From positions 1-31,287 of the forward strand of contig CAZGQY010000026.1 in assembly GCA_964528035.1 (NCBI GenBank): a stretch of 31,287 nucleotides of DNA, given 5' to 3'. The position numbers and the translations under genes were made by a program. Source of the DNA: an uncultured Methylococcaceae bacterium. GTDB taxonomy: Bacteria; Pseudomonadota; Gammaproteobacteria; Methylococcales; UBA1147. Of the stretch, positions 21 through 25,724 are shown in pieces; within the stretch, counting starts at the first letter, position 1, and every line of letters starts with the position of its first letter. Below the pieces are notes generated by a model that did no database searches, was not told the origin of the DNA, and worked only from the letters and a program-made list of their open reading frames with translations.

Positions 21-524
21 TTGGGTATCATCATCCAATCGTCAATTCGCTGGGTCGAAACGGAGAGCTGGGATGGACTGGTGTCCGTCATTTTCGTATT
101 CATTGCTTCACAGGTATTATTGCTCTGTGTAACACGTCTACGCGCCCGAATCTATATGCGGCGTCACCAGGGCCAAAGACTTCAGGATGTATTAAAAGAA
201 GGGAATCCAGCACTCGCAATCCGCTATGCCGGTCACATTATTGCAGCGGCTCTTGGAATTAGTGCGGCCGCACACCTGATTGCATACATGCCCGAGACCC
301 CATGGATTTCAGCAATTATCTGGTTAGTCGTTTCCGTGACTATTGCTGGCTTGATTACTCTGCTTTCCATGATCGCCCGTTGCATTATTCTCAAAGGCAT
401 CGATACAGTTGAGGAAGTGGATAACCAGAAAAATATAGGCGTTGCCTTTATTGAAGCTGAAATTTTTATTTCCATCGCAATAATTTTAAATCCAATAATG
501 ACCATGCTGGATTCTATTATCTAA
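21..524 (+). CDS. DUF350 (YjfL-like) small inner-membrane protein. The reading frame is open to the window edge, so the 5' end may be partial.
   Basis: The 167-aa ORF has two hydrophobic repeats with the DUF350-like pattern N-x-A-x-A-I/L...G-x-x-I-A-x-A, seen as 'EGNPALAIRYAGHIIAAALGISAAAH' and 'NQKNIGVAFIEAEIFISIAI'. It starts with TTG and there is no stop between position 3 and 21. It is followed by the other yjf-type cluster genes. Confidence 0.55.
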   Translation: MGIIIQSSIRWVETESWDGLVSVIFVFIASQVLLLCVTRLRARIYMRRHQGQRLQDVLKEGNPALAIRYAGHIIAAALGISAAAHLIAYMPETPWISAIIWLVVSVTIAGLITLLSMIARCIILKGIDTVEEVDNQKNIGVAFIEAEIFISIAIILNPIMTMLDSII

Positions 525-543
525 ATACACCGGGCGTAACATA

Positions 544-2262
544 ATGCACGCGTCGGCTGAAACTCGACGACCACGGATTACTCTACAGCACGATATCGTC
601 TTAATTGGCAGCATGATGGTATTGGCTGCGTGTGGCCTGATTTATGAATACCTGCTGGCCCATTACGCCGGTCGAATAATCGGTGCCATGGAAAGCAGCA
701 TATACGGGATGATCGGTATCATGATCGTTGCCATGGGTGTCGGTGCCTTTCTTGCGAAACTGATCAAAGACCCCTACACCGGGTTTGCCTGGCTCGAAGT
801 CTGTATCGGCTTTCTTGGCGGGTCTTCCATACTGATCATGGCAGGTGTAATCTGGTTAACCTACAGTTTACCGCAATGGCTGCAACAGGTATACGGTGTA
901 CACCCCTCCATGAGCATGGACGGTGGCTATATTGCGATTCTGCAGGAAGCCTCATTTGTAATGCCTTTTGTTATCGGATTTATTTTAGGTGTCATGATCG
1001 GCATGGAAATCCCTCTCATCGCCCGAATCAGAGAACATATACACGGCAAACACATCGTACATAATACCGGTACGATTTATGGTGCCGATTATATTGGAGC
1101 AGGGATCGGCGCTGCGATCTGGGTTATTGTCTGCCTAAAGTTGCCCATTATGGTCGCGGCAATTGGTACTGCAGCAATCAATGCGCTTGTCGGACTGATT
1201 TTTCTATTTCGCTATCAATCGGAACTAAAATCAAAACACAAACTGTGGTTTGCACATGCCATGCTGATAAGCGCTTTAATACTGTTATCCGTCATGGGAA
1301 TTCGATTTACCCAGGATATGAATTCAACCTTATTCAAGGATAAAGTAATTTACACTAAGATCACTGCCTATCAACACATCACGTTGACCGAACGTCGCAG
1401 TGGTAAAGGCTTAGCCACAGTAGTCAGTTTGTATATTAACGGTCGTTTACAATTCTCCAGCAATGATGAAGCTATATACCATAGTCTTCTGACTTACCCG
1501 CCGATGCTGGCTTCTGCCCGGCATGACCATATTCTGGTGATTGGTGGCGGTGATGGGCTGGCCGTCAGGGATATTTTGCAATGGCAGCCAAAATCTATCA
1601 CTGTCATCGACCTTGATCAATCAATGATTGAGCTTTTTTCCGGAAATGACCTGGAGTCACAAAAATACCTGCGTAAGATACTTTTAAAGCTCAACAAACA
1701 ATCGTTCCTTGATCATCGAGTCAAAATAATCATTGGTGATGCTTTCATCGAAGTGGAAAAACTGGTCAGTTCCAGGAATCATTACGATACTATTATCGTT
1801 GATCTTCCCGATCCAAGTCACCCGGATCTGAACAAACTTTATTCCGGTTTTTTTTATTCGCGCCTGAAAGAACTGTTGTCGGGTGACGGCGCGATTGCTG
1901 TTCAGTCTACATCGCCCTATCACGCAAAAAAAGCATTTATCTCAATCGGCAAAACTTTGACCGACGCTGGCTTCAATACCCAACAGTACCACACCAATGT
2001 ACCAAGCTTCGGCGAATGGGGCTGGAGCATAGGAACTAAACGAGGGAAAAATGCCTTACAACGTATCAGGGAAACGGACACCCTTCCTGTTAGTGACCCA
2101 TGGATCTCGAAAGCTCAGTTAGAAGCCGCTTTCGTCTTTGCACCGTCGTTTTACAGAAATCCGAAAAATGTCGGTGTAAACCACCTTGGCAGTCATCTGA
2201 TCTACCATTATCACCATGATGCCTGGGAAAACGAAAATGGCATATACTTCACATATAAATAA
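544..2262 (+). CDS. Membrane-anchored spermidine-synthase-like polyamine aminopropyltransferase. An N-terminal multi-TM domain of about 230 aa is fused to a C-terminal SpeE-like domain.
   Basis: The 572-aa product has a C-terminal half with SpeE/aminopropyltransferase motifs: 'HILVIGGGDGLAVRDILQW', 'VIDLDQSMIELF', 'IIIGDAFIEVE' and 'DTIIVDLPDP'. The N-terminal half is strongly hydrophobic with several predicted TM helices. Confidence 0.75.
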   Translation: MHASAETRRPRITLQHDIVLIGSMMVLAACGLIYEYLLAHYAGRIIGAMESSIYGMIGIMIVAMGVGAFLAKLIKDPYTGFAWLEVCIGFLGGSSILIMAGVIWLTYSLPQWLQQVYGVHPSMSMDGGYIAILQEASFVMPFVIGFILGVMIGMEIPLIARIREHIHGKHIVHNTGTIYGADYIGAGIGAAIWVIVCLKLPIMVAAIGTAAINALVGLIFLFRYQSELKSKHKLWFAHAMLISALILLSVMGIRFTQDMNSTLFKDKVIYTKITAYQHITLTERRSGKGLATVVSLYINGRLQFSSNDEAIYHSLLTYPPMLASARHDHILVIGGGDGLAVRDILQWQPKSITVIDLDQSMIELFSGNDLESQKYLRKILLKLNKQSFLDHRVKIIIGDAFIEVEKLVSSRNHYDTIIVDLPDPSHPDLNKLYSGFFYSRLKELLSGDGAIAVQSTSPYHAKKAFISIGKTLTDAGFNTQQYHTNVPSFGEWGWSIGTKRGKNALQRIRETDTLPVSDPWISKAQLEAAFVFAPSFYRNPKNVGVNHLGSHLIYHYHHDAWENENGIYFTYK

Positions 2263-2269
2263 ATATTTA

Positions 2270-2298
2270 TTGACATTTGCCATAATATGGCTTTTAAT
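2270..2298 (+). promoter_or_regulatory. Candidate sigma-70 promoter for the yjfI-like/PspA-like genes, with TTGACA, a 17-bp spacer and TTTAAT.
   Basis: TTGACA lies at 2270-2275, followed by a 17-nt spacer and TTTAAT at 2293-2298. This is about 50 bp upstream of the 2347 start, which has an AGGAG RBS. Confidence 0.3.
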
Positions 2299-2346
2299 TG
2301 ATCACCAGATTGTTGAAACCAGTCTGATTACCTTAGGAGCAATTGA

Positions 2347-2754
2347 ATGAACTATACACTTGAAGAGCTGGCTCACGGCCTGAATACAACGACGACAGAG
2401 GAAGGTACGAATTTCGATGCCGTCATCACGGAAATCGGCGTAATTGAGGTAAGCTGCTCTAATAACGAGGAGTTTCCCATTCATCTTGCCATGACTGAAA
2501 CGCAGCTTCTTTCAGTCACGCCGCTGTTTAATATCAGTGAAGTGCTAGAGGGCAAAGTGGATCAGTTAAACAATTTATTGTTGCAGTTGAGTCCTGCTGT
2601 GCCACTCAGTTCAATCGGTCTGCAGGATGGTAATTATATTCTGTTTGGCGCGATGGCACTCAACACGATATTCGAAAATATCGTTCACGAGCTGGAAGTC
2701 CAGGCTGAAAATACGGTCGACGTTCTTGAAGCAATTGAGCCATTATTGAATTAA
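2347..2754 (+). CDS. YjfI-like DUF2170 protein.
   Basis: The 135-aa acidic protein has a strong AGGAG RBS and a sequence pattern close to E. coli YjfI: 'EEFPIHLA..TQLL', 'YILFGAMALNT...IVHELEV...NTVDVLEAIEPL'. It sits immediately upstream of a PspA-family gene, as in the yjfIJ arrangement. Confidence 0.75.
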   Translation: MNYTLEELAHGLNTTTTEEGTNFDAVITEIGVIEVSCSNNEEFPIHLAMTETQLLSVTPLFNISEVLEGKVDQLNNLLLQLSPAVPLSSIGLQDGNYILFGAMALNTIFENIVHELEVQAENTVDVLEAIEPLLN

Positions 2755-2814
2755 ACGTAACTATTCAACACATCAAATTTGTAGGGTAGTTATAATCAAA
2801 CGAGGATTAACATT

Positions 2815-3507
2815 ATGAGTATATTGAGAGACATGTTTTCAGCCTTTAAAGGCGCGGGTAACGAAGTGGGTGAGGCTATTATCGATGCCAATGCAGTGCG
2901 TATCCTGGAACAGGAAATTCGCGAAGCCGACGAGGCTATTCATAAATCCAAACAAAGCCTGACTAAACTGAAAGGTACGGAAATTCGCCTCAAACGCGAA
3001 ATCAATTCCTTAGAAGTTGATATTCAAGATTATGAAGCTAAAGCAGTTCAGGCATTGAATGAAAACAAGGAAGAAATTGCCGTTAAAGTCGCCGACCGAA
3101 TTGCAGAAATTGAGTCAGATCGGGACGAAAAAGCCGCTGAACATGCAAAACTGGCCGCTGACGTTGAATCCCTTAACAAAATGATCAAGAATCGCAACAA
3201 AATTATCCAGAAGAACAAGCGGGAACTGGAAAAAGTTCGTACTATAAAGGAGCTACAAAAGACAACTTCCACGATTAGTTCGAATTTCGCTGCCAGCAGT
3301 TCAAATGCACACCGCGTATCTAAAGCACTGGATCGGGTAAAAACCAAACAGGCGAAATGGAAGGACGATATGGAAGCAGGCGACTGGATGGCCAGCCAGG
3401 AAAATGTCGATGATCTCGACAAAGAACTCGAGGCCGCCGGCATTGGCAACAACCCGGGTAAAAGCAACAGCGTTCTCGAACGTCTGAAAGCCAGACAGAA
3501 TGCGTGA
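2815..3507 (+). CDS. PspA/IM30 (ESCRT-III-like) family protein, YjfJ-like.
   Basis: The 230-aa product has long charged heptad-like coiled-coil sequence typical of the PspA/IM30 family: 'AVRILEQEIREADEAIHKSKQSLTKLKGTEIRLKREINSLEVDIQDYEAKA'. It has a GAGG-type RBS. The context is yjfI-like upstream and DUF2491-like downstream. Confidence 0.85.
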   Translation: MSILRDMFSAFKGAGNEVGEAIIDANAVRILEQEIREADEAIHKSKQSLTKLKGTEIRLKREINSLEVDIQDYEAKAVQALNENKEEIAVKVADRIAEIESDRDEKAAEHAKLAADVESLNKMIKNRNKIIQKNKRELEKVRTIKELQKTTSTISSNFAASSSNAHRVSKALDRVKTKQAKWKDDMEAGDWMASQENVDDLDKELEAAGIGNNPGKSNSVLERLKARQNA

Positions 3508-3539
3508 GATCTTGTTGAAATTTCTTAGAGTGGAGCAGC

Positions 3540-4175
3540 ATGGGACTATTTGGTAAAAATAAGCAAAAGGGTCGGCGCTCATTGACAACGCCGGGAGAGT
3601 TACTTGCCGGGGATATCGTCGTTTTAAAAGAACGACGATCCCTGCCCGGTGAGTTACAGGGCCAACAACTGGAAGTGACTCAGGTAGGAACCTATCAATA
3701 CCCGGGGAGCGTCAAAAAAGAATTAACTTTGCGCTCTGTGGATAATCGTATTTATTATCTAGCCATCAATGATGACAATGACGCACCGTCTTTGAATTTC
3801 TCGATAAAAATCCCAAGAAAGATTGTTTTGTCGATTTTTGATGAAGAACAGTTTGCACAACTATGGGACCCTGAATTTACAACCCTACAGGTAGCTGACA
3901 GGCTGAATGAATATACAGACTGGTTGTCCGATGACTATAAACAGGAAGTCATCGAAGGAGAAGGCTACTACTATGATCGCGATTGCAGCGGCGATCCACC
4001 ATCGGAATATCAGGATGATGACGGTGAAGAATTCCGCTGGCATGAATGCACCTCCATGCTTGATAATAACTACTCACTGTCGGTTGAAATATGGGAAGAT
4101 GGTGATACAGAAGTATTCCTGGAATTAATAACACCCGCTGATGTCATCGCAGAAATGTGGCCACATGGCAACTGA
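3540..4175 (+). CDS. YjfK-like (DUF2491-type) protein. The assignment is tentative.
   Basis: The 211-aa product has a basic N-terminus and a very acidic C-terminal half. The call rests on position directly after the PspA-like gene, as in E. coli yjfK. Homology cannot be verified without a search. Confidence 0.5.
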   Translation: MGLFGKNKQKGRRSLTTPGELLAGDIVVLKERRSLPGELQGQQLEVTQVGTYQYPGSVKKELTLRSVDNRIYYLAINDDNDAPSLNFSIKIPRKIVLSIFDEEQFAQLWDPEFTTLQVADRLNEYTDWLSDDYKQEVIEGEGYYYDRDCSGDPPSEYQDDDGEEFRWHECTSMLDNNYSLSVEIWEDGDTEVFLELITPADVIAEMWPHGN

Positions 4176-4485
4176 TAAGTGGGAAAAAGAAAAGCATGCA
4201 CTAAAAAAAGTGCAGATTCATTTCGCATTTCAGCAGGAAATCATCGCATCAATTCGTCACGATGCCGCAGATGATAATATTAATCCCAGCGATATTGTCC
4301 GCAAAATTGTCGGCTTACCCTATACAAAAATTCAGCGCGCCAGAATCGGTCTATCCTTTAATGAACATGATTTGAACTACCTGTCGAATCGCTATAGTCT
4401 TGAAGAAGTCGATGAAAAAGAAATCAAACGCAGAGTCATGGAAGAAATCAATTTGCATTATCATAAGCAGAATCGGAATGGCTAA
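4141..4485 (+). CDS. Hypothetical small protein of 106-114 aa.
   Basis: The ORF begins with ATG at 4141, overlapping the previous gene by 35 nt. An internal ATG at 4165 ('MATDKWEKEK...') is an alternative start. The product is charged with no recognisable motif. The ORF fills the gap before the channel gene. Confidence 0.35.
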   Translation: MSSQKCGHMATDKWEKEKHALKKVQIHFAFQQEIIASIRHDAADDNINPSDIVRKIVGLPYTKIQRARIGLSFNEHDLNYLSNRYSLEEVDEKEIKRRVMEEINLHYHKQNRNG

Positions 4486-4491
4486 CCGAAA

Positions 4492-5592
4492 ATGAGCCCC
4501 GGCTATTTTATTCATGCACAGTGGAAACGCCGACTGTATTTCAAGTATACACGGCATTACGAAAAACGCTTCCTGATTCGTCTAGCTAAAGTATTCGCGC
4601 TGCTTTTGATGCTGATAATGGCTCATACCGGGGGCATGATGGTCCTGGAAAAAATGTCTTTCAGCGATGCCTTGTGGCTGTCAATCACTACCGTAACAAC
4701 CGTCGGTTATGGTGATTTTTCTGCTGCAACATGGCAAGGACGACTGGTAACAACATTATTACTCTATGTATTTGCTATCTCATTGCTGGCACAACTTGCC
4801 GCAGAATTTTTCGATTACCGCCTGCTAATCCGTGAAAGAAAGGTAAGAGGCCACTGGAGATGGAAAGATATGAAAGACCATCTGTTAATTATCAATACAC
4901 CGAATGATCACACCGAAATATATCTTAAACGACTGCTCAAACAGGTCAGGAAAACACCACTAATTGAAGAACTCCCGGTGCAAATACTGACACGAAAATA
5001 TGATTCAGGACTCCCTGGCTCGTTATCTAACCTGGGTGCTGTACACTTTAGCGGTGTCGCAGAAAACAACGAAAACCTGAAAACTGTCAATGTCGATACC
5101 GCAAAATTCATTATCATTATCGCCAGAGATCCGGGTGATCCCACATGCGACAGCCTGAGCTTTGATGTATTAGACAGAATTCATGAAATCGGCACCAAAG
5201 CCTTAATTGTTGCCGAGGTCTCTCAGGATAATAACCGGGAACGCATCAAAAAAGCCGGAGCGGATGTCATTCTTCGACCGATCCGGGCTTACCCGGAATT
5301 ACTGGTTCGTTCATTGGTTGCCCCGGGAACTGAGCAAGTTATGGAAAATCTCTTCACCCATGATTCGGATCATATGGTGCGTATCGATTTAAGCTTTAAG
5401 AATAAAATCTGGTCAGATATCGTCTGCAGTTTTGTTACCGGTGATATAGGACTGCCGATCGCCTATGTTGGCGACCAGGGGGTGAATGTCAACCCATTAC
5501 CCGGCGTAGCCTGTAGCGGAACTGCGGTCATTGTTCTCATCAATGAATGTCAGCAGGTTTCGATGGAAAAAGCTAAAAAATACCTTGGATAA
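4492..5592 (+). CDS. Two-TM potassium channel with a C-terminal RCK/TrkA-N domain, MthK/Kch-like.
   Basis: The K+ selectivity filter 'TTVGYGDFS' lies between two hydrophobic helices. The C-terminal region is Rossmann-like ('HLLIINTPNDH...KFIIIIARD...ALIVAEV'). Confidence 0.85.
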   Translation: MSPGYFIHAQWKRRLYFKYTRHYEKRFLIRLAKVFALLLMLIMAHTGGMMVLEKMSFSDALWLSITTVTTVGYGDFSAATWQGRLVTTLLLYVFAISLLAQLAAEFFDYRLLIRERKVRGHWRWKDMKDHLLIINTPNDHTEIYLKRLLKQVRKTPLIEELPVQILTRKYDSGLPGSLSNLGAVHFSGVAENNENLKTVNVDTAKFIIIIARDPGDPTCDSLSFDVLDRIHEIGTKALIVAEVSQDNNRERIKKAGADVILRPIRAYPELLVRSLVAPGTEQVMENLFTHDSDHMVRIDLSFKNKIWSDIVCSFVTGDIGLPIAYVGDQGVNVNPLPGVACSGTAVIVLINECQQVSMEKAKKYLG

Positions 5593-16276: not shown

Positions 16277-18346
16277 TCATGCCTCAGAAACTTGCTGATT
16301 CTGAGGCATTTGATCCGCTCGCAGGGCATCTTCATGTATCACATCACTGGCTTTCTCACTAATCATATAGACTGCACTAACGATAAACACCCCCGGAATT
16401 TTAGGAAAAACAGAGGCATCGACGATACGCAGATTTTTAACTCCATTTACTCTGAAACGACTATCGACCACTGCATTTTGCGGGTCGTTTGTTCCCATCC
16501 TACAACTACAGGAAGCATGGTGACCCCAGGCATTGTTTTTCACAAATTCTTCTATCTGGGTATCGGTCCGAACTTCTCTACCTGGCAGTTCTTCCTCGGC
16601 GATGTACTGTTCGCTCTTCGCATTTATTCTACGCACGAACTTTAGCGCTTCCACGACTGAACTCAAATCAGTTCCAGCAGGATCATTGCCTTCATCAAAA
16701 TAGTGGAAGTTAATCGCAGGAACCGCGCGAGGATTCGCCGATTTTAGGGTAACCTCTCCCGCTGTATTGTTGGTATGCGCCTTGAGAATGGCCCAGGTAA
16801 AATGTTTGTTATCCTGCGTAGCCTTTTCAGCATAACCGGGATAATAACCAGAAAAATTCCCCGGCATACCGAATACGAAAAGATCCGGCGGTTCGTCTTC
16901 AGCGACAGACGAGGCACGTTTCAGAAACGATATGACCGCTCCGTTTGTCGTATAGAGCCCTTCACCTTCCTGCCATTCGGTATACATTGGGTCAGGTACT
17001 TCCCCTGACGATGGCGAACGGAATGTGGCATCTTCGAGGAAAGTAAAATCATGCTTCATTCTGGAAACCACACACACTTCGTAGCGATCCTGTAGATTTT
17101 TACCGACCCACGGACTATCGACTATTAGCTCGATGCCATGTTTGCCTAATTCATTTCCTGGACCCACACCGGATAACATCAGTAGCTGAGGTGTATTGAA
17201 CACCCCACCACTTAATATCACTTCGCGCCTGGCACGAACCTGCTGCAAATCATTGTCTTCACTTTCCTCATTCAGCGACCCATTGTCAGTGATCTTGGAA
17301 CGATCCGCATTATACAACCCTTTGCCCTGCCGATACTCTACGCCAACCGCAACCTCCCCATCGAAAATTACGCGCGTCACCAAAGCGTGTAACTGTACAC
17401 GAAGTACACCTGCGCACTGCCGCTCAACCTGGCGAATATATTCGCGACTGCCGACGCGCCGTCCATTATGGGTTGTCATCGGTACAACAACCAAACCCTC
17501 ACGATCAGTATTTCGCCAATCGTTAGGATCGAGCAGCCAATGTTTATTTCGTAATTGCAGTAATCGGTCTATGTAATCGGTGACTGTTTTTATTTTCGGG
17601 TTCAAGACTTCTATCGCTGCCTTAAATACACCTTTCCTCAATTGCATATCAGATCTCAGCCTGTGCCGATACTTCCACATTTTCAGCAATTTTACTCCAG
17701 GGATATCGGTATGCAGCCAACCATTAAAACCGTGACGCGACAAATTTTGATCTGCAACGTGTGAATAGTCGCAATTTTCAAGCCGCTCAAAATAGGCTCT
17801 CATCTTATCGCTGCTCCAGGAATTATCCCCCGTTACTTTGGCAATATAATCCCAATCACTATTATTTGGAGTCACCATAATCATTGCGTTATGGGCGGTA
17901 CAACCACCCAGCGTACCTGATCGTGGGTAAAATATTCCGTCCTGGGCTTCACAGAACTTCTTATCCCGACGGGATTGCTTATCATCCCCATAATGGCGTA
18001 CAAAAAAATCCCATCTGAATTGAGGATCTTCAGAGGCTTTAGTGTGAAACAGCGGCACCGAATAATTATCACTCTGATCATCACCCCCTGCTTCCATCAG
18101 CAATACAGAATAGCCCCTGGTGGCCAGGTTCGCAGCCAGCGGCCCACCACCCGCACCCGAGCCCACAACAATATAGTCGTATTCTTCCGCAAGCCCGACA
18201 GCATCGCCGTCTGCATTTAATTTATTCTCCGGCTGACCACAGATAATGCGCGAACAACCACTCAATAGCGCCAGTGTCCCAACACCGGTTCTTATACAAA
18301 ATTTTGCAAATCCCCTGCGAGTAAAGCCCGTACTATTTATCCTCAT
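16277..18346 (-). CDS. Tat-exported GMC-family FAD oxidoreductase, choline/alcohol-dehydrogenase-like.
   Basis: The 689-aa product has a twin-arginine signal 'TRRGFAKF...LLSGCS' and an FAD-binding 'VVGSGAGGGPLAANLA...LLMEAGG'. The GMC C-terminal region includes 'HHASCSCRMG'. A strong RBS (AGGAGAA) precedes the ATG. Confidence 0.85.
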   Translation of the reverse strand: MRINSTGFTRRGFAKFCIRTGVGTLALLSGCSRIICGQPENKLNADGDAVGLAEEYDYIVVGSGAGGGPLAANLATRGYSVLLMEAGGDDQSDNYSVPLFHTKASEDPQFRWDFFVRHYGDDKQSRRDKKFCEAQDGIFYPRSGTLGGCTAHNAMIMVTPNNSDWDYIAKVTGDNSWSSDKMRAYFERLENCDYSHVADQNLSRHGFNGWLHTDIPGVKLLKMWKYRHRLRSDMQLRKGVFKAAIEVLNPKIKTVTDYIDRLLQLRNKHWLLDPNDWRNTDREGLVVVPMTTHNGRRVGSREYIRQVERQCAGVLRVQLHALVTRVIFDGEVAVGVEYRQGKGLYNADRSKITDNGSLNEESEDNDLQQVRARREVILSGGVFNTPQLLMLSGVGPGNELGKHGIELIVDSPWVGKNLQDRYEVCVVSRMKHDFTFLEDATFRSPSSGEVPDPMYTEWQEGEGLYTTNGAVISFLKRASSVAEDEPPDLFVFGMPGNFSGYYPGYAEKATQDNKHFTWAILKAHTNNTAGEVTLKSANPRAVPAINFHYFDEGNDPAGTDLSSVVEALKFVRRINAKSEQYIAEEELPGREVRTDTQIEEFVKNNAWGHHASCSCRMGTNDPQNAVVDSRFRVNGVKNLRIVDASVFPKIPGVFIVSAVYMISEKASDVIHEDALRADQMPQNQQVSEA

Positions 18347-18711: not shown

Positions 18712-21546
18712 ATGCACGCCGCACCCGAGCCATCACCACAGACCACTGCAAAACAATTGATCGAGTCTATACGTGGTGTCGCTTTAGAGCTTAAATTGCG
18801 CCCAGAACAAATCGAATCTATAGATCTGGATACCACACTGGATACCGAGCTCGGGCTGGACAGCCTGACTCGCGCGGAATTTATCAGTCGAATTGGGCAA
18901 AAATTCGAACTGACATTTCCTCAGCAGGTATTTACAACAGTTTCCACTCCGAGAGAATTACTGAGAGAGGTATTGGCGGCACAATCAATCGATCACAACG
19001 CACCAATAGCCAAAGTTGACAGCCTGGTACTCGATAAAGTTGATCCATCTCCCGCCACCGCCCAAACCCTGCTTGATATCCTCGACTGGCACGTGCAGAC
19101 CCACCCTGAACGCCCACATATTCAAATCTACGAAGCAGGTGAAAGCACTGCAACCATTAGCTACCAACAACTAAAGCGGGAAGCGACCCGGATCGCTGCC
19201 GGATTGCAGGCTAAAGGCCTAAACCCCAAACAGGCGGTCGCAATAATGCTGCCAACCTGTAAAGAATATTTCTACACCTTTTTTGGCATTTTAATCGCTG
19301 GCGGCATCCCCGTTCCGATTTACCCTCCTGCCCGGCTTAATCAGGTCGAAGATCACTTACTACGTCATAAAAACGTTCTATCCAACTGTAGCGCTGTAAT
19401 GCTAATCACGGTCGATGAAGCAATACACGTCGCACGCCTGGTAAAACCCCATGTTCGAAGCCTGCATAGCATCGTTACACCTGAAGAAATTTGCGCCGAT
19501 CCTGCATCTGTTTTATATCCCAATATTTCATCAGCCGATATCGCCTTCCTGCAATATACATCCGGGAGCACCGGGACTCCGAAAGGCGTCACTCTAACTC
19601 ACGCCAACCTGCTAGCCAATATAAGATCCATGGGGCAAAAACTGCAGATCGAATCCACAGATACTTTCGTAAGCTGGCTGCCTTTGTATCATGACATGGG
19701 CTTGATCGGCGCCTGGTTTGGCAATTTTTACTATTCGGCCTTGTTGGTAATCATGTCACCATTGGATTTTCTGGCAAAGCCGGATCGTTGGCTCAACATC
19801 ATCCATCAGACTAAAGCAACTTTGTCAGCAGCACCTAATTTTGCTTACGAACTGAGTATAAAGCGAAGCAGCGAAGACCAGATAAAAAACCTTGATCTGA
19901 GCAATGTTAGAGCATTGTTCAACGGCGCTGAACCTGTTAGCCCGAATACGATGGAAAAATTTGCCGATCACTTCGCCCCAACAGGTTTACGACGATCAGC
20001 CTTATATGCGGTTTATGGACTCGCCGAATGCTCCTTAGGCTTAACCTTTCCACCCTTGGCAAGAGGCCCGCTGTTTGATGTCATTAACCGGGATACCTTC
20101 ATGGAAACCGGATTCGCAAAACCGGAGGTTCAAAAATCAAACTCGCTGCGTTTTGTTTCCTGTGGAACCCCTATCCCCAACCACGAACTGCGCATTCTGG
20201 ATGACTCAGGCCGTGAATTACCCGACCGCCGCCAGGGTCGCCTGCAGTTCCGCGGGCCCTCAACAACCAGCGGTTACTACCGCAACCCTGAAAAAACACG
20301 CGAATTATTTCACGGCGAATGGTTAAATTCTGGCGACCTTGCCTATGTTGCCGATGGTGAAGTATATCTGACTGGTCGCGTAAAAGACTTAATTATCCGC
20401 GCTGGCCGAAATATATATCCACAGGAAATCGAAGAAGCTGTCAGTAATATCTCAGGGATTCGAAAAGGCTGCGTCGCGGTGTTCGGTAGCAGTCATTCAG
20501 AATCCGGTACCGAAAAACTCATTGTGCTTGCAGAAACCCGCATTACCGATAGCGAAGAAAAGAATCGCTTAGGGTTACAGATCAACCAGGTCGCAACAAA
20601 ACTGATTGGAGGTGCGCCGGATGAAGTCTTATTGGTACGCCCCCATACAGTATTAAAAACTTCCAGTGGAAAAATCAGGCGTAGCGGATGTCGCGATCTG
20701 TTTGAAAAAAACCTGCTTGAGAAAGGCCCTGCATCACCCTGGATACAATTCTCCCGATTACTTATTACCGCAGGCCTGTCTCAAATAAATAGAATCAGAG
20801 ACATCGCTTTCGACTCAGCCTATGCGATCTATTCATGGATAATCTTTAGCTTCATTACCATCATATCCTGGCCTGTCGTAGTATGCTGCCCGAGCCTTCT
20901 ATGGCGATTGAAATTTATTCGCGCGGCGATTAGAACCCTTGCACGATTAACTGGAACAAAAATTACCCTCCAGGGAACCGAAAATTTACCCTCAACAAAC
21001 ACAACCAACATTTTTGTCAGTAACCACTGCAGTTATCTTGACGCTGCTGTACTCTTCCTAGCATTGCCATTACCCTTTAGTTTCGTAGCAAAAAACGATC
21101 TGTTAAAACAATTTTTTGCAACAACCTTCCTACGTCGAATAGGTACCGAATTCGTCGCAAGATACCAGCAACAGCAAGGCATCACCGATTCAGAAAATGT
21201 GACTGCTGCCGTCAATAATGGAAAATCAATCCTGGTGTTTCCTGAAGGCACATTCACTCGTATGCCAGGATTACTACCCTTTTACATGGGTGCTTTCAAA
21301 ACAGCAGCGGAAACCGACACGCCGATCATACCCGTAATAATCCACGGTACACGTTCAATTTTAAGATCGGACACATGGTTTCCTCGTAAAGGTGCTGTAA
21401 CAATCAGCATTTTACCCAAAGTAGAATCACTTGATCGCAGCAATTCCAGAGAAGTTTCAAGCAATTGGGAGCATGCCCAGGATCTGAAAGACACCACGCG
21501 AAAATTAATGCTGAAACACCTGAGAGAACCTGACCTTTGTGAATAA
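18712..21546 (+). CDS. Tri-domain fusion of an acyl-carrier-protein domain, a fatty-acyl-AMP ligase (AMP-binding) domain and a lysophospholipid acyltransferase (PlsC/LPLAT) domain, with a TM segment between the last two.
   Basis: The 944-aa product has an N-terminal ACP motif 'LGLDSLTRAEF'. Adenylation motifs are 'YTSGSTGTPKGV', 'GRVKDLIIRAGRNIYPQEIE' and 'KTSSGKIRR'. A hydrophobic stretch 'YSWIIFSFITIISWPVVV' follows. The acyltransferase motifs are 'NHCSYLD' (HX4D) and 'FPEGTFT'. Confidence 0.8.
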   Translation: MHAAPEPSPQTTAKQLIESIRGVALELKLRPEQIESIDLDTTLDTELGLDSLTRAEFISRIGQKFELTFPQQVFTTVSTPRELLREVLAAQSIDHNAPIAKVDSLVLDKVDPSPATAQTLLDILDWHVQTHPERPHIQIYEAGESTATISYQQLKREATRIAAGLQAKGLNPKQAVAIMLPTCKEYFYTFFGILIAGGIPVPIYPPARLNQVEDHLLRHKNVLSNCSAVMLITVDEAIHVARLVKPHVRSLHSIVTPEEICADPASVLYPNISSADIAFLQYTSGSTGTPKGVTLTHANLLANIRSMGQKLQIESTDTFVSWLPLYHDMGLIGAWFGNFYYSALLVIMSPLDFLAKPDRWLNIIHQTKATLSAAPNFAYELSIKRSSEDQIKNLDLSNVRALFNGAEPVSPNTMEKFADHFAPTGLRRSALYAVYGLAECSLGLTFPPLARGPLFDVINRDTFMETGFAKPEVQKSNSLRFVSCGTPIPNHELRILDDSGRELPDRRQGRLQFRGPSTTSGYYRNPEKTRELFHGEWLNSGDLAYVADGEVYLTGRVKDLIIRAGRNIYPQEIEEAVSNISGIRKGCVAVFGSSHSESGTEKLIVLAETRITDSEEKNRLGLQINQVATKLIGGAPDEVLLVRPHTVLKTSSGKIRRSGCRDLFEKNLLEKGPASPWIQFSRLLITAGLSQINRIRDIAFDSAYAIYSWIIFSFITIISWPVVVCCPSLLWRLKFIRAAIRTLARLTGTKITLQGTENLPSTNTTNIFVSNHCSYLDAAVLFLALPLPFSFVAKNDLLKQFFATTFLRRIGTEFVARYQQQQGITDSENVTAAVNNGKSILVFPEGTFTRMPGLLPFYMGAFKTAAETDTPIIPVIIHGTRSILRSDTWFPRKGAVTISILPKVESLDRSNSREVSSNWEHAQDLKDTTRKLMLKHLREPDLCE

Positions 21547-21835
21547 TAAGAGTACTATGTAATGAGAACCCTTATGCGCAATCTACAAGCTGTCGTTCAG
21601 GCGCGACAGGACAGCGCATTGCTAATCGCCGTTTTGTTGAGGATCAGCTAATTTTCGTCGCTCACTCCCGACAAAGACGCCCGGATATTATTCATCAACA
21701 ATCAAGACAAACTTATCAAGCAGTTTGTTATTTAAAGAAATAGAAAAAGCGGCTCGTTTTTTGCATTTTCGCCTGGATTGATAACTCGAAAAACAAAACG
21801 CTCCCTGTCGTTAAAAATAATAAGGACAATCCATA

Positions 21836-24481
21836 ATGTGGAAAAAATTTTTTCGCCTGCTGATACTTTTACTCGTTATCGCCGCCAATTACGCAGTGTG
21901 GACGCAGTTAAACAAACCACGTCATGCGCCAACCTGGGAAAACACCATGATGGGGGTATCTTTTAATCCTCATAGACGCGACCAGGATCCGGAAAAAGGT
22001 CAATACCCGACAGAACAACAAATTGAAGACGATTTACGCCTGTTATCCGGAAAAACCCATGCGGTGCGTATCTACAGTGTTACTCATGGACTGGAGATGG
22101 TACCCGAGCTGGCTGCTCAACACGATATAAACGTGACTGCGGGTGCATGGATCGCCAGAGATGAAACCGCCAACGAAATCGAAATCGAAAACCTGATAGC
22201 GCTGAGTAAAAAACATAACAACATCGTACGCACTATTGTCGGCAACGAAGCAATATTGCGCAAAGACGTTTCAGTCGAACAGATGATCGCTTATCTCAAG
22301 CAAGTCAAAAGCCGCGTTTGGCGACCTGTCAGTACATCAGAACCCTGGCACACATGGATTGAACACCCAGAACTCGCTAAAGAAGTTGATTATATTGCGG
22401 CTCATATTCTGCCCTATTGGGAAGGCATTCCCATTGACCAGGCAGTGGACTATGCCTTCGAACGCTACAATCTGCTTCGTGAAGCCTTTCCGGACAAGCC
22501 CATCGTCATTACCGAGGCAGGTTGGCCTTCTGGTGGGCAACCCTTTAAGCAATCTGAACCGTCGTTGATCAATCAGGCTCAGTTTTTAAGAAATTTTCTT
22601 AATCGCACCCAGCAGGAAAACATCACTTATTACATTGTAGAAGCATTTGACCAACCCTGGAAAATGTCTATGGAAGGCTCGTCGGGCGCATATTGGGGCC
22701 TGTTTGATATCAACAGGAAAGCAAAGTTTCCGATGCGGGACGATGTTTTAGCACTACCAAACTGGAAAGACTGGGCAATAGTTGCCGGCATAGTGGGTGC
22801 GCTACTCATGGCTCTCTTCCTGATCAAGAAGCACCGTTTGCGCCCTCAGGGCAAACTTTTATTCGCCATAGTGGCCAATATCGCTGCCTCCGCTGTCGCA
22901 TGGACAGCCTCGGTGGGAATCCTTCAATATCACACAACCTTAAGCAGTGTAATGTGGGGAGTTCTGCTATTGATGCAAGCATTAGCAATTGTGGTGCTTC
23001 TTGTCGAAACCCTTGAAATTTGCGAAGTTTTATGGCACAGAAAAGGAAAACGCACATTCACCGCACTCAGCCCTCCCGATAATTTCGATTTCCCTAAGGT
23101 TTCATTACACCTACCCATACATAATGAGCCCCCGGAAATGGTTAAGGAAACTTTGTCAGCGCTTGCTCAACTGGACTATCCAAACTTCGAAGTACTGGTA
23201 TTGGACAATAACACAACTGACGATAACATCTGGAAACCCGTTGAAGAATTCTGCACCACCCTGGGTAATAAATTTCGTTTTTTTCATCTGGAAAACTGGC
23301 CGGGATTTAAAGCCGGTGCTCTAAACTACGGACTCACCCAGACTGCTGATGATGCAGAAGTGATTGCAGTCATCGACAGTGACTACATTGTCAGTCCAAA
23401 CTGGCTAAAACAATTGGTACCCTATTTTGAGGATTCTGGCGTAGGTTTTGTACAAGCCCCCCAGGATTACAGGGATAGCAAGGAAAACCTGTTCAAATCA
23501 TTTTGTCATTGGGAATACGCCGGTTTCTTTAAACTGGGCATGGTGCAGCGCAATGAATTCAACGCGATCATACAGCATGGAACCATGACTATGATCAGAA
23601 AAACAGCACTGGAAAAAGTAGGTAAGTGGGGCGAATGGTGCATTTGTGAAGATAGCGAACTCGGCATACGCCTGTATCGACACGGGTATGACTCGGTCTA
23701 TGTTAAAGATTCGTTTGGCCAGGGCGTCACACCCGACAATTTAGCCAGCTACCGGACTCAAAGATTTCGTTGGGTCTACGGTGCGGTGCAAATTATGAAG
23801 GGTCATTGGCGCGCATTTCTACCCGGCAAAAAATCCGGATTAACACCGGCTCAACGATATTATTTCATCGCCGGGTGGGTTCCGTGGTTTTCTGATGCAC
23901 TGGCGTTATTGTTCACCCTTGGCAGCCTTGCGCTTTCGGCGCATATTCTCACTGAACCCTCGCGCGGAGAACTACCGGTCATGGCCTTCGTGCTACCAAC
24001 GATTGGTTTATTCTGTTTTAAGATTTTACGTTCATTCCTGCTGTACCAGGCACGCGTAAAATGCACTCTTGGACAAACTCTGGCTGCGATGATCGCGGGA
24101 CTTGCACTTACACATACCGTGGCAAAAGGCGTATGGATTGGATTGTTTACGTCCGGACGTCCTTTTCTACGCACCCCTAAATGCGAAAAAACCAGCCCTA
24201 TCCTTGCTGGAATCCTAACCATCAGACAGGAAATTATTTTATTGATTCTGCTGGTCGCAGCCGCATATTCGATCGGCTCTTTAGAATATTTCAATAATAC
24301 CACCGGTAAAATATGGACCACAGTTCTACTGGTTCAGGCCATTCCTTATGGTGCAACAGTACTGACATTATTCGTGAATATTGCAGGCAGTTTAGATACA
24401 CAGTCTGTAATGGAACCACAAGCGGATTCTGGAGAAAAAACCATCAAATCCGCAGAAAATCTTGAAAAAATTGTACGTTAA
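21836..24481 (+). CDS. Bifunctional GH17 beta-1,3-glucanosyltransferase / GT2 processive beta-glucan synthase, NdvB-like.
   Basis: The 881-aa product has an N-terminal signal anchor and a GH17-like region ('IVGNEAILR', 'ITEAGWPSGG'). Several TM helices follow. A GT2 domain carries 'VLVLDNNTTDD', 'VIDSDY', 'QAPQDY' and the processive-synthase motif 'QRFRWVYG'. Further TM helices lie at the C-terminus. Confidence 0.8.
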   Translation: MWKKFFRLLILLLVIAANYAVWTQLNKPRHAPTWENTMMGVSFNPHRRDQDPEKGQYPTEQQIEDDLRLLSGKTHAVRIYSVTHGLEMVPELAAQHDINVTAGAWIARDETANEIEIENLIALSKKHNNIVRTIVGNEAILRKDVSVEQMIAYLKQVKSRVWRPVSTSEPWHTWIEHPELAKEVDYIAAHILPYWEGIPIDQAVDYAFERYNLLREAFPDKPIVITEAGWPSGGQPFKQSEPSLINQAQFLRNFLNRTQQENITYYIVEAFDQPWKMSMEGSSGAYWGLFDINRKAKFPMRDDVLALPNWKDWAIVAGIVGALLMALFLIKKHRLRPQGKLLFAIVANIAASAVAWTASVGILQYHTTLSSVMWGVLLLMQALAIVVLLVETLEICEVLWHRKGKRTFTALSPPDNFDFPKVSLHLPIHNEPPEMVKETLSALAQLDYPNFEVLVLDNNTTDDNIWKPVEEFCTTLGNKFRFFHLENWPGFKAGALNYGLTQTADDAEVIAVIDSDYIVSPNWLKQLVPYFEDSGVGFVQAPQDYRDSKENLFKSFCHWEYAGFFKLGMVQRNEFNAIIQHGTMTMIRKTALEKVGKWGEWCICEDSELGIRLYRHGYDSVYVKDSFGQGVTPDNLASYRTQRFRWVYGAVQIMKGHWRAFLPGKKSGLTPAQRYYFIAGWVPWFSDALALLFTLGSLALSAHILTEPSRGELPVMAFVLPTIGLFCFKILRSFLLYQARVKCTLGQTLAAMIAGLALTHTVAKGVWIGLFTSGRPFLRTPKCEKTSPILAGILTIRQEIILLILLVAAAYSIGSLEYFNNTTGKIWTTVLLVQAIPYGATVLTLFVNIAGSLDTQSVMEPQADSGEKTIKSAENLEKIVR

Positions 24482-24524
24482 GTCTGACTAATTTCGACGC
24501 AAGTGAATAATCACCCGATAATGC

Positions 24525-25724
24525 TTGCATTGTGAAATGAAAGCATTGACTGATTCAACGTTTGCCTATCCAAGCTCCGTTTCGAGCCGGGATTTACGCA
24601 TAGATTTTCTTCGTGGCATGGTCATGATGGTCGTAATCACCGTTCACCTTGAATTTTTTTCTTTGTTCGGGATGTTGGTCTGGGAGCGAATCGGACTGGT
24701 TTCAAGCGCCGAAGGATTCGTCGCTCTTTCAGGCCTGGTACTAGGTATCGTCTATCAGAAAAAGCTGCTTAAAGATGGATTTTGGCCCACCGCCAAAAAA
24801 TTATTAAAACGAGCATTTCTTTTGTATCGGGTAAATATTTTCGTCATACTCAGCATACCCATACTGGGTTTACTACCGTTCATAAACATTTACGAATTAA
24901 GCCATTGGTCTTTAGCAGGCAGTCCGGGCCCGGTCTACCCCTTATACCCACCAGTCTCTACAGGTTGGATCAAATTAGTCTCACAAGCACTGCTACTAAA
25001 AATAGGGCCGCACCAATTTCAGGTTATAGGGCTGTATGTTTTATTTCTTTGCTGCGCACCCTTAGCACTGTATCTAATGCACAAAAAACAAACAGCCGTT
25101 CTGCTGGCATTCAGTTGGGCTCTGTATGTCATCAACCAGATTTTTCATATACAGCTAACAAACGCCAAGTTCGACCTTGCTTTTCCTATACTGAACTGGC
25201 AACTACTATTTATAAATGGCATGGCACTGGGATTTCACCGCGAAAATATCACCCAGATCTACAAGCGAATTAATATATCCATCTTAAATATTGTCATCGG
25301 TTTTGTATGCCTGGCTTTTTTATTTCTGGCTCAGAATATGCCTCACCCAATTTTCTGGCCCTGGCCCAGCCTATCGTATATCGATCCGGAAGATTTTCGC
25401 ACACTCTACAATTATGGTTTTCAAAAAGGAGGTCTGGGATTCGGGCGGATCCTAAACAACATGGCCTTATATATTGCTGCTTATACTCTTTTGAGCCGCT
25501 ATTGGATCATTTTTGAAAAGTCACTGGGGTGGTTATTTATTCCTATCGGACAAGCTTCTTTATACGTATTCATTGTCCATGTGTATTTTGTTCTTCTGGT
25601 CGCCAATACACCACTTGCCGTGTACAACAACTTCTACCTCAACAGTTTGGTTCATGCAATAACAGTACTAGTCATCTGGCTTATGGTAAAGCGGAAGTTT
25701 TTATTTAATTTGATACCTCGTTGA
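24525..25724 (+). CDS. OpgC/acyltransferase-3 superfamily polytopic membrane protein, a putative glucan O-acyl (succinyl) transferase.
   Basis: The 399-aa product has 10 or more predicted TM helices. The N-terminal 'RDLRIDFLRGMVMMVVITVHL' matches the R-x-D-x-x-R-G...H signature of acyltransferase-3/OpgC proteins. The gene starts 44 bp after the glucan synthase gene. Confidence 0.6.
   Translation: MHCEMKALTDSTFAYPSSVSSRDLRIDFLRGMVMMVVITVHLEFFSLFGMLVWERIGLVSSAEGFVALSGLVLGIVYQKKLLKDGFWPTAKKLLKRAFLLYRVNIFVILSIPILGLLPFINIYELSHWSLAGSPGPVYPLYPPVSTGWIKLVSQALLLKIGPHQFQVIGLYVLFLCCAPLALYLMHKKQTAVLLAFSWALYVINQIFHIQLTNAKFDLAFPILNWQLLFINGMALGFHRENITQIYKRINISILNIVIGFVCLAFLFLAQNMPHPIFWPWPSLSYIDPEDFRTLYNYGFQKGGLGFGRILNNMALYIAAYTLLSRYWIIFEKSLGWLFIPIGQASLYVFIVHVYFVLLVANTPLAVYNNFYLNSLVHAITVLVIWLMVKRKFLFNLIPR

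Follow-up and report, generated by a model that had tools for sequence, protein, structure and literature searches.

The closest described relatives of the three-gene cluster studied here, which lies in a window of 31,287 nt (the whole stretch of DNA analysed; contig CAZGQY010000026.1 of assembly GCA_964528035.1, an uncultured Methylococcaceae bacterium), are the lysolipid-acylating enzyme Aas, the NdvB glucan synthases and the glucan O-acyltransferase OpgC. The cluster encodes a fusion of an acyl carrier protein (ACP), a fatty acyl-AMP ligase (FAAL) and a lysophospholipid acyltransferase (LPLAT) domain (hereafter the fusion), an NdvB-type protein that joins a glycoside hydrolase family 17 (GH17) and a glycosyltransferase family 2 (GT2) domain, and an OpgC-family membrane protein. 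Like Aas of E. coli and the LplT-Aas fusions, the fusion combines a fatty-acid-activating, adenylate-forming domain with a PlsC-type HX4D domain on one membrane-associated polypeptide, and we propose that its acyl group, as in Aas, reaches a lysolipid through an ACP thioester. On the other hand, the domain order is ACP-ligase-acyltransferase in the fusion but acyltransferase-ligase in Aas, the carrier is built into the fusion whereas Aas uses soluble ACP, and the ligase is of FAAL type in the fusion but of AasS/FadD type in Aas. A further multidomain protein, the ether-lipid enzyme ElbD of Myxococcus (ligase-ACP-reductase-AGPAT, the last an acylglycerolphosphate acyltransferase), likewise unites fatty-acid-activating, carrier and AGPAT-like domains in one protein that makes membrane lipid; unlike ElbD, the window fusion has no reductase domain detected by Pfam and follows another domain order.

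FAAL-LPLAT/AGPAT-like fusions have been listed as unexplained architectures in surveys of FAALs (eLife 2021, PMC8460268; Protein Sci 2026, PMC12820801), which give for them no substrate, product, physiological role or association with glucan genes. The window fusion belongs to the same family, likewise outside the context of polyketide and nonribosomal peptide synthases (PKS/NRPS), and our literature search found no experimentally characterised orthologue, only these architecture listings. It thus belongs to an uncharacterised family already noted in surveys, and we would class it as a variant of the Aas type. The NdvB/'Orphan' family of GH17-GT2 proteins, with its motifs VGNE and E-x-GWP, comes from Spiers and colleagues, and one of its clades is represented by Methylomonas methanica (PMC10237404), while OpgC, a protein of about 10 transmembrane (TM) segments matching PF10129 over its full length, is the succinyl transferase of osmoregulated periplasmic glucans (PMC4726272).

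We read the cluster, with moderate confidence, as two functional units that have been adjacent since a single event in the ancestor of a Methylococcales-like clade. The domain identities, catalytic motifs, FAAL-type pocket, distribution and synteny pattern on which this reading draws are given in the next two sections. What the two units act on and make, and that they work independently of each other, we infer from them as follows. The fusion would be a self-contained Aas-like enzyme at the cytoplasmic face of the inner membrane: its FAAL domain would adenylate a free fatty acid, the acyl group would be loaded onto the phosphopantetheine arm of the fusion's own ACP domain and not onto coenzyme A (CoA), and the PlsC-type domain would pass it to a lyso-glycerolipid, probably a lysophospholipid, with fatty-acid salvage and membrane-lipid repair or remodelling as the outcome. 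In the second unit, the cytoplasmic GT2 domain of NdvB would polymerise beta-1,3-glucan from UDP-glucose and thread the chain through its own channel, the periplasmic GH17 domain would cleave and then cyclise or branch it into an osmoregulated periplasmic glucan, and OpgC would O-acylate this glucan, most likely with succinate.

Domains and motifs of the three proteins

A preliminary description, made from the sequence, had named three open reading frames (ORFs), a set of domains and the motifs DSL, HX4D, FPEGT and QRFRW. Re-checking of the ORFs reproduced all three positions exactly, Pfam placed every named domain in the three proteins, and all four motifs were found and were invariant in the homologue alignments. 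Its calls of an 881-aa NdvB-type GH17-GT2 fusion with QRFRW (on which Pfam, the PDB matches and the motifs agree) and of an OpgC-like membrane acyltransferase (full-length PF10129 match) were likewise borne out, and its wording of the first protein as Aas-like chemistry in permuted order with a built-in carrier is supported by the domain calls and their order.

The carrier domain of the fusion matches PF00550 at 4.6e-10 (40.1 bits against a cut-off of 20.8), and the predicted phosphopantetheine site (D50, S51, L52) is invariant in the 19 homologues aligned; in the AlphaFold2 model its helices span residues 9-26, 31-35, 51-64, 71-76 and 80-89. The AMP-binding match that follows (PF00501, residues 125-523, 2.1e-72, 244.5 bits) contains the ligase core motifs SGSTG at 284 and YGLAE at 435, both invariant in the family alignment. 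Several lines of evidence place this domain among the FAALs: i) its best NCBIfam matches are FAAL families, the top one being 'fatty acyl-AMP ligase' PRK09192 (427 bits, under its cut-off of 600); ii) its closest solved structures are FAALs (7r7f, EcFAAL 3pbk, Legionella 3kxw and FadD32 at 1e-86 to 1e-68, and 1e-86 to 1e-49 over a wider set that includes FadD23 and FadD28), whereas acyl-CoA ligase structures match at 1e-36 or weaker; iii) the elements by which EcFAAL rejects CoA, namely the bulky residues W224, M231 and F279 and a FAAL-specific helix T252-R258 (PMC8460268), have counterparts in the fusion. In the alignment to 3pbk, whose chain numbering is shifted by 1 relative to that paper, the three residues correspond to W322, M329 and F377 and the helix to an ungapped stretch at residues 349-360, and all of these are invariant in the family. 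The adenylation domain is thus, as judged from its sequence, of FAAL type and not of CoA-ligase type.

A search of the C-terminal domain with hidden Markov models, proposed in the preliminary description as a check, found it to be PlsC-type (PF01553, 3.5e-26, 92 bits against a cut-off of 23), and the residues H772 and D777 of its HCSYLD motif as well as E845, G846 and T847 of FPEGT are invariant among the 19 homologues. When this domain was scanned alone, the highest score came from the AGPAT model TIGR00530 (90.6 bits, just short of its cut-off of 102.95), and the models for acyl-ACP:phospholipid O-acyltransferases (PRK08633 and PRK06814) scored 66-71 bits, followed by PlsC (45), OlsA (42), Aas (42) and GlsA (26); we take it to be nearest to the acyltransferase domains of acyl-ACP:phospholipid O-acyltransferases. 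Against the Aas models as a set (PRK08043, PRK08633 and PRK06814, cut-offs 886-1349) the whole fusion scored 157-190 bits and the C-terminal domain 42-71 bits; PRK08043, for example, gave 41.8 bits against a cut-off of 886, and PRK08633 gave 190 bits for the whole protein and 71 for the C-terminal domain, with a cut-off of 1221. Since the fusion falls short of these equivalog models and its domains are ordered differently, it would be Aas-like in its working without being a member of Aas.

Only one hydrophobic stretch was found in the fusion, at the junction of ligase and acyltransferase and flanked by clusters of Arg and Lys. In the AlphaFold2 model (mean predicted local distance difference test score 75.7) a long helix at residues 676-725 and a second one at 729-746 precede the acyltransferase fold. 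PlsC carries an N-terminal two-helix motif, and by its resemblance to that motif we read the modelled anchor as monotopic or re-entrant, which would put all three domains of the fusion on the cytoplasmic side, as ACP-tethered transfer requires.

The NdvB protein consists of an N-terminal anchor, a predicted periplasmic GH17 domain (about residues 30-300), a TM region, a GT2 domain (about 420-700) and more TM helices, with about eight TM segments in all. Its GH17 match to PF00332 (residues 223-298) is 29.7 bits, barely over the cut-off of 28.2; the best PDB match for this part is the beta-1,3-glucanosyltransferase of R. miehei (4wtp, residues 55-285, 1.7e-30). GT2 Pfam families cover residues 423-700, and residues 334-722 match BcsA structures at 2e-21. 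The GH17 motifs V135-G136-N137-E138, E227 and G229-W230-P231 are invariant among homologues, as are the GT2 motifs DSD (514-516) and QRFRW (642-646), and the GT2 domain is flanked by TM segments. In its VGNE and GWP motifs, TM region, QxxRW-bearing GT2 domain and length (~870-880 aa) the protein resembles described members of the NdvB/'Orphan' family (Pseudomonas aeruginosa PA1163, Bradyrhizobium NdvB); unlike in pseudomonads, synteny with dapE is missing at the window locus. Methylococcales are rich in NdvB homologues at 59-79% identity, one of which (60% identical) is named NdvB by its source, and the most distant homologues recovered are ~43-47% identical to the window protein, some of them lying among conserved housekeeping genes in a Pseudomonas-like arrangement.

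OpgC matches PF10129 (OpgC_C) at 5.1e-49 (167.5 bits against a cut-off of 21.4) over profile positions 1-350 of 358 and has about 9-10 hydrophobic segments. Its homologues are named 'OpgC domain-containing protein' or 'succinyl transferase OpgC' by their sources, and some also match PF01757 (Acyl_transf_3); a sequence search detected no solved structure among the relatives of the protein. In public annotations of identical contigs opgC begins with the ATG at 24537 (395 aa), while an alternative TTG at 24525 would give 399 aa (24525-25724); the gap to ndvB is 55 nt from the ATG and 43 nt from the TTG. As in Rhodobacter-type OpgC, a full-length PF10129 match and a polytopic membrane protein go together with a gene position beside that of a periplasmic glucan synthase; characterised OpgC, however, acts on OpgGH beta-1,2/1,6 glucans, whereas the partner in the window is an NdvB beta-1,3 synthase. 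Both proteins are new members of known families, and their pairing is uncommon.

Distribution and separability of the cluster

The top 120 database homologues of the fusion all have the three domains, with 49-60% identity and at least 96% coverage, and those with names are from Methylococcales, Nitrosomonas, Methylogaea, Methylothermus, Neptunomonas and Muproteobacteria. For the analysis of neighbourhoods we took the best 80 loci among at least 600 matches, one genome per species, of which 63 had at least 3 kb of upstream and 55 at least 3 kb of downstream sequence. These near-full-length homologues, which all have the three-domain architecture as well, come from Gamma-, Beta- and Alphaproteobacteria, Desulfobacterota, Nitrospirota (Nitrospira), Acidobacteriota, Campylobacterota, Entotheonella and others. 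A homologue of the window NdvB or OpgC within 10 kb was found by tblastn at none of the 80. Clustering of neighbouring ORFs returned a sole recurrent neighbour, an Atg22/UMF1-like transporter of the major facilitator superfamily (MFS; PF11700, ~430 aa), which is adjacent to the fusion at 11 loci from unrelated genomes, often on the same strand (L012, L016, L025, L029, L033, L039, L048, L061, L075, L079 and L083). This adjacency loosely recalls the Aas-LplT pairing (PMC11416262), and by analogy the MFS protein is a possible transporter partner of the fusion. Partners that would disclose the pathway of the fusion did not otherwise emerge, the best 80 loci holding besides these 11 cases only lineage-specific housekeeping synteny.

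The order fusion-ndvB-opgC on one strand was found, through look-ups of closest homologues, in at least eight lineages of one clade, the window included, and this clade is Methylococcales-like by its named closest homologues. The other loci are L084/L085 (GCA_973857295.1), L086, L087/L088, L175/L176 (GCA_964619885.1), L177, L178 (GCA_022616155.1) and L181. Fusion and NdvB trees resolve identical subclades (window and L088; L084, L086 and L178; L175 and L177), with L181 outside the trees and grouped with L175/L177 through common upstream genes. Across subclades the fusion is 53-60% identical, against ~50-56% to outgroups, and NdvB 70-79%, against 62-67% to the sister clade. Because the two trees are congruent, the triad appears to have had a single origin followed by vertical inheritance.

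The genes around the triad vary, both upstream (a glucose-methanol-choline (GMC) oxidoreductase gene; h175/MEKHLA; a gene for a cyclic-nucleotide (cNMP)-binding protein; a flavin reductase gene; genes for an unknown 293-aa protein and TauE) and downstream (a PIN/FitA pair; pgi-pan genes; a methyltransferase gene; an alpha/beta hydrolase gene with or without one for a GH2_C-like TIM barrel). In two of the three subclades the generic alpha/beta hydrolase lies 3' of opgC on the opposite strand (L087, L175/L176, L177 and L181); the TIM barrel accompanies it in L087, L175/L176 and L177 and is missing from L181. Neither gene is present at the window locus. The hydrolase, with the GH-like gene, is probably ancestral to the triad clade, which suggests an ancestral larger glucan-processing cluster that was reduced in the lineage of the window. 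L087 additionally encodes a stand-alone GH17-like protein of 566 aa. In the window, opgC is directly followed on the minus strand by a toxin-antitoxin pair, a PIN-domain toxin gene (25802-26227) and a gene for a ribbon-helix-helix antitoxin like FitA (26224-26457), which occupies the place of the hydrolase/GH-like or pgi-pan genes seen downstream of the triads of relatives.

From the NdvB side, 80 loci were recovered by a metagenome scan with an NdvB alignment as query (43-65% identity), 51 of them with at least 3.2 kb upstream and 57 with at least 1.5 kb downstream. None has the fusion beside NdvB, and opgC adjoins NdvB in only two (L090 and L091; NdvB 65% identical), so that the pairing of ndvB with opgC in the window is rare in the family (2/57 informative loci). 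Targeted look-ups added loci with NdvB and OpgC but no fusion alongside (L171 and L172, 66%) and others with NdvB alone (L169/L170, and L173/L174 of a Bathymodiolus methanotrophic symbiont). A PF01553 ORF at the start of L172 was considered as a nearby fusion gene and dismissed, as it gave no tblastn match at 1e-5. General partners of NdvB were sought without success: a subset of loci keeps a housekeeping neighbour set of Pseudomonas-like look, and the sister methanotroph NdvB loci have in common a 386-aa protein without a Pfam match. Thus linkage of the three genes in phylogenetically independent lineages, that is outside the clade, was seen at none of the best 80 fusion loci and none of the 80 NdvB loci.

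Inside and next to the clade the units also come apart. The Methylococcales genome JTS-RE114 (L004) is nested in the second subclade of the fusion tree, with 77% fusion identity to L084, and has downstream genes like those of L084 (pgi, panD, panC, panB, HPPK, pcnB and an RDD-domain gene); in L004, which has neither ndvB nor opgC at this place, the fusion gene is followed after ~200 nt by pgi, so this lineage lost ndvB-opgC as a unit and kept the fusion. In the sister genome GCA_036480195.1, the fusion gene (L180) lies between EF-G and CreA on one contig and NdvB-OpgC (L172) on another. Across triad loci the fusion-ndvB spacer measures 274-646 nt and the ndvB-opgC spacer 55-367 nt, and four aligned fusion-ndvB spacers have little sequence in common. 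Scans of the spacer returned no Rfam match, hairpins no stabler than in shuffled sequence, and promoter and terminator signals at background level with nothing convincing; on the strength of these Rfam, alignment, folding and promoter/terminator results we dropped the idea that the spacer holds a conserved RNA or a regulatory element.

Two units or one pathway

The preliminary description had proposed that the three genes form one pathway, in which the fatty acid of the fusion is attached to a glucan or a glucolipid is produced, the outcome being an acylated periplasmic beta-glucan or glucolipid; the acyl group would go, directly or via OpgC, to the NdvB glucan or to a glucosyl-lipid. We regard this as unlikely, although the collinear triad has outlasted the turnover of its flanks in at least eight lineages with congruent fusion and NdvB trees, all three proteins are predicted inner-membrane envelope enzymes, and the hydrolase and GH-like TIM barrel suggest a more extensive cluster built around the glucan, on whose border the fusion would stand. 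The linkage is absent outside the clade whether approached from the fusion or the NdvB side; it is missing in L004, where the fusion outlived ndvB-opgC, and in the sister genome GCA_036480195.1; the fusion-ndvB spacers are long and unconserved; the catalytic motifs of the window fusion are those of the 19 aligned family members and give no hint of a novel function; and the acyltransferase domain is predicted to be cytoplasmic while the glucan is periplasmic. Known acceptors of PF01553 enzymes are lipids, which also speaks against a glucan acceptor, and to our knowledge cyclic and osmoregulated glucans carry succinyl, acetyl, methylmalonyl, phosphoglycerol, phosphoethanolamine and phosphocholine groups but are not known to carry fatty-acyl groups. 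The distribution data, the predicted cytoplasmic PlsC-type domain with its lipid-accepting relatives and the lack of reports of fatty-acyl glucans together disfavour a single pathway. No test supported the fatty-acylated glucan or glucolipid itself, the PlsC-type domain being phospholipid-acyltransferase-like and its predicted anchor topology placing it on the cytoplasmic side; the synteny check suggested along with the proposal came out split, with the triad conserved in at least eight lineages of the one clade and absent at the 80 best fusion loci and 80 NdvB loci elsewhere. The accompanying remark that this is not a described system has to be divided, for NdvB and OpgC are described, and it is the FAAL-LPLAT fusions that are listed in surveys and were never characterised. 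A variant in which a housekeeping fusion was recruited into an envelope cluster (NdvB, OpgC and the ancestral hydrolase and GH-like genes) for a lipid-anchored or long-chain-acylated beta-1,3-glucan or glucolipid, with a kind of substituent that periplasmic glucans are not known to bear, we likewise think improbable, and the same holds for the part the fusion would play there, either supplying the acyl group or re-acylating leftover lysolipid.

The fusion might also remain a general lysolipid re-acylase that is kept beside ndvB-opgC for physiological reasons, a suggestion that we find doubtful but the least so of those set beside our own. Candidate reasons, each held just as tentatively, are co-regulation under osmotic or envelope stress, repair of lysolipid formed as a by-product of envelope acylation, and service of the fusion's ACP as a cofactor of the glucan synthase. 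Conservation of the triad at clade level fits such indirect coupling, as does the need of OpgH glucan synthesis for ACP (PMC4726272), and the Aas/LplT system sets a precedent by tying lysophospholipid repair to phospholipase envelope stress (PMC11416262); but the spacer has no conserved regulatory element, L004 and GCA_036480195.1 show the linkage to be dispensable, the ACP requirement is documented for OpgH and not for NdvB, and a linkage that arose once could persist by phylogenetic inertia. A third possibility, quite unlikely in our view, separates the fusion from the glucan genes altogether and gives it an OlsA/GlsA-like role in acylating a lyso-ornithine or lyso-glycine lipid with a fatty acid activated in cis. 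The C-terminal domain does match OlsA and GlsA weakly (the 42 and 26 bits above), aminolipid O-acyltransferases belong to the LPLAT family, and it has been asked whether the synthesis of aminolipids is supplied by FAALs (PMC11631085); the acyl-ACP:phospholipid O-acyltransferase models, however, score higher, and no OlsB- or GlsB-like N-acyltransferase recurs beside the fusion in the best 80 loci.

Two independent units made adjacent once thus remain our preferred account, and a lineage-specific arrangement is the best-supported reading of the adjacency between the fusion gene and ndvB-opgC. Several points nevertheless weigh against it: i) with the AGPAT model TIGR00530 the C-terminal domain stays below the curated cut-off (90.6 against 102.95 bits); ii) the acceptor of the fusion is a guess, since no member of the family has been characterised in the literature; iii) the MFS neighbour of the fusion belongs to the Atg22/UMF1 family and not, as in the Aas-LplT pairing, to LplT; iv) the NdvB product and the OpgC acyl group are drawn by analogy from distant characterised relatives only; v) the flanks of the triad changed at least five times upstream and at least four times downstream, and the stability of the triad beyond neutral adjacency is a genuine if modest hint at selection on the linkage. 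Because the triad has outlasted its flanks, we retain both indirect coupling and a direct pathway as less probable readings.

If the fusion family is a self-loading counterpart of Aas that is independent of soluble ACP, it would represent a second widespread route of fatty-acid salvage and lysolipid repair in Gram-negative membranes, and the fusion would be a FAAL that serves primary lipid metabolism and not PKS/NRPS chemistry. From the pairing of NdvB with OpgC one would expect methanotroph-like bacteria to have cyclic beta-1,3-glucans with O-acyl groups, probably succinyl, which, if true, would extend OpgC chemistry from OpgGH to NdvB glucans. Moreover, the clade-specific triad offers a concrete genetic system for testing whether lipid repair and periplasmic glucans are coupled.

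Feature coordinates and the rest of the window

Table 1. Features of the cluster in the window, and regions that follow opgC at related loci (numbered within each locus).
Feature	Sequence	Position	Strand	Basis or remark
ACP-FAAL-LPLAT tridomain fusion	window	18712-21546	+	944 aa; ORF and three Pfam domains above cut-off
Acyl carrier (PP-binding) domain, aa 33-85, D50-S51-L52	window	18808-18966	+	PF00550
Predicted FAAL-type adenylation domain, aa 118-667	window	19063-20712	+	NCBIfam FAAL families and solved FAAL structures
Membrane anchor, the only hydrophobic stretch, aa 705-733, flanked by basic residues	window	20824-20910	+	hydropathy scan, AlphaFold2 model
PlsC/LPLAT-type acyltransferase domain, aa 750-877, HX4D 772-777, FPEGT 843-847	window	20959-21342	+	PF01553
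Fusion-ndvB spacer, 289 nt	window	21547-21835	+	intergenic
NdvB-type GH17-GT2 glucan synthase, 881 aa	window	21836-24481	+	Pfam, PDB matches, motifs, TM scan
OpgC-family polytopic membrane O-acyltransferase, 395 aa from ATG	window	24537-25724	+	PF10129
Post-opgC hydrolase/GH-like region	L087	6323-13530
Post-opgC hydrolase/GH-like region	L175	11221-13529
Post-opgC hydrolase/GH-like region	L177	11191-13631
Post-opgC hydrolase region	L181	11225-12007

Divergent from the fusion gene, three minus-strand genes occupy 13378-18346. They encode an 842-aa protein with a lipoprotein-like signal, CxxCH motifs at residues 263 and 503 and a weak match to di-haem cytochrome c peroxidase, a 62-aa ORF (16069-16257) and a 689-aa GMC oxidoreductase, and by their sequences they look like an operon for a three-subunit flavocytochrome dehydrogenase. 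Homologues of the GMC or the 842-aa protein were found by tblastn within 10 kb at none of the best 80 fusion loci, and the GMC oxidoreductase and the di-haem protein were discarded as members of the cluster since they are missing from every other triad locus.

Further upstream, rtcR (11616-13199, plus strand) and rtcB (10145-11398, minus strand) form a divergent pair, and downstream of rtcB on the minus strand follow a small ORF of 67-108 aa (9759-10085) and then a gene for tRNA-Met (CAT) at 9518-9592; a tRNA gene embedded so close behind an operon for an RNA-repair ligase is a curious arrangement. On the other side of the cluster, about 1 kb (26460-27505) is without a credible ORF and contains an inverted repeat with 30-nt arms (26495-26524 and 26577-26606, 87% complementary) and a 52-nt loop; the only Rfam match in this region, to Ysr224 with 24.5 bits, fell short of the gathering score of 70. 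At the start of the window, a plus-strand group of envelope-stress-like genes (21-5592) encodes a DUF350 protein, a 572-aa membrane protein with a spermidine-synthase-like domain, a DUF2170 protein and PspA/IM30, together with two proteins without a Pfam match and an ion-channel protein.

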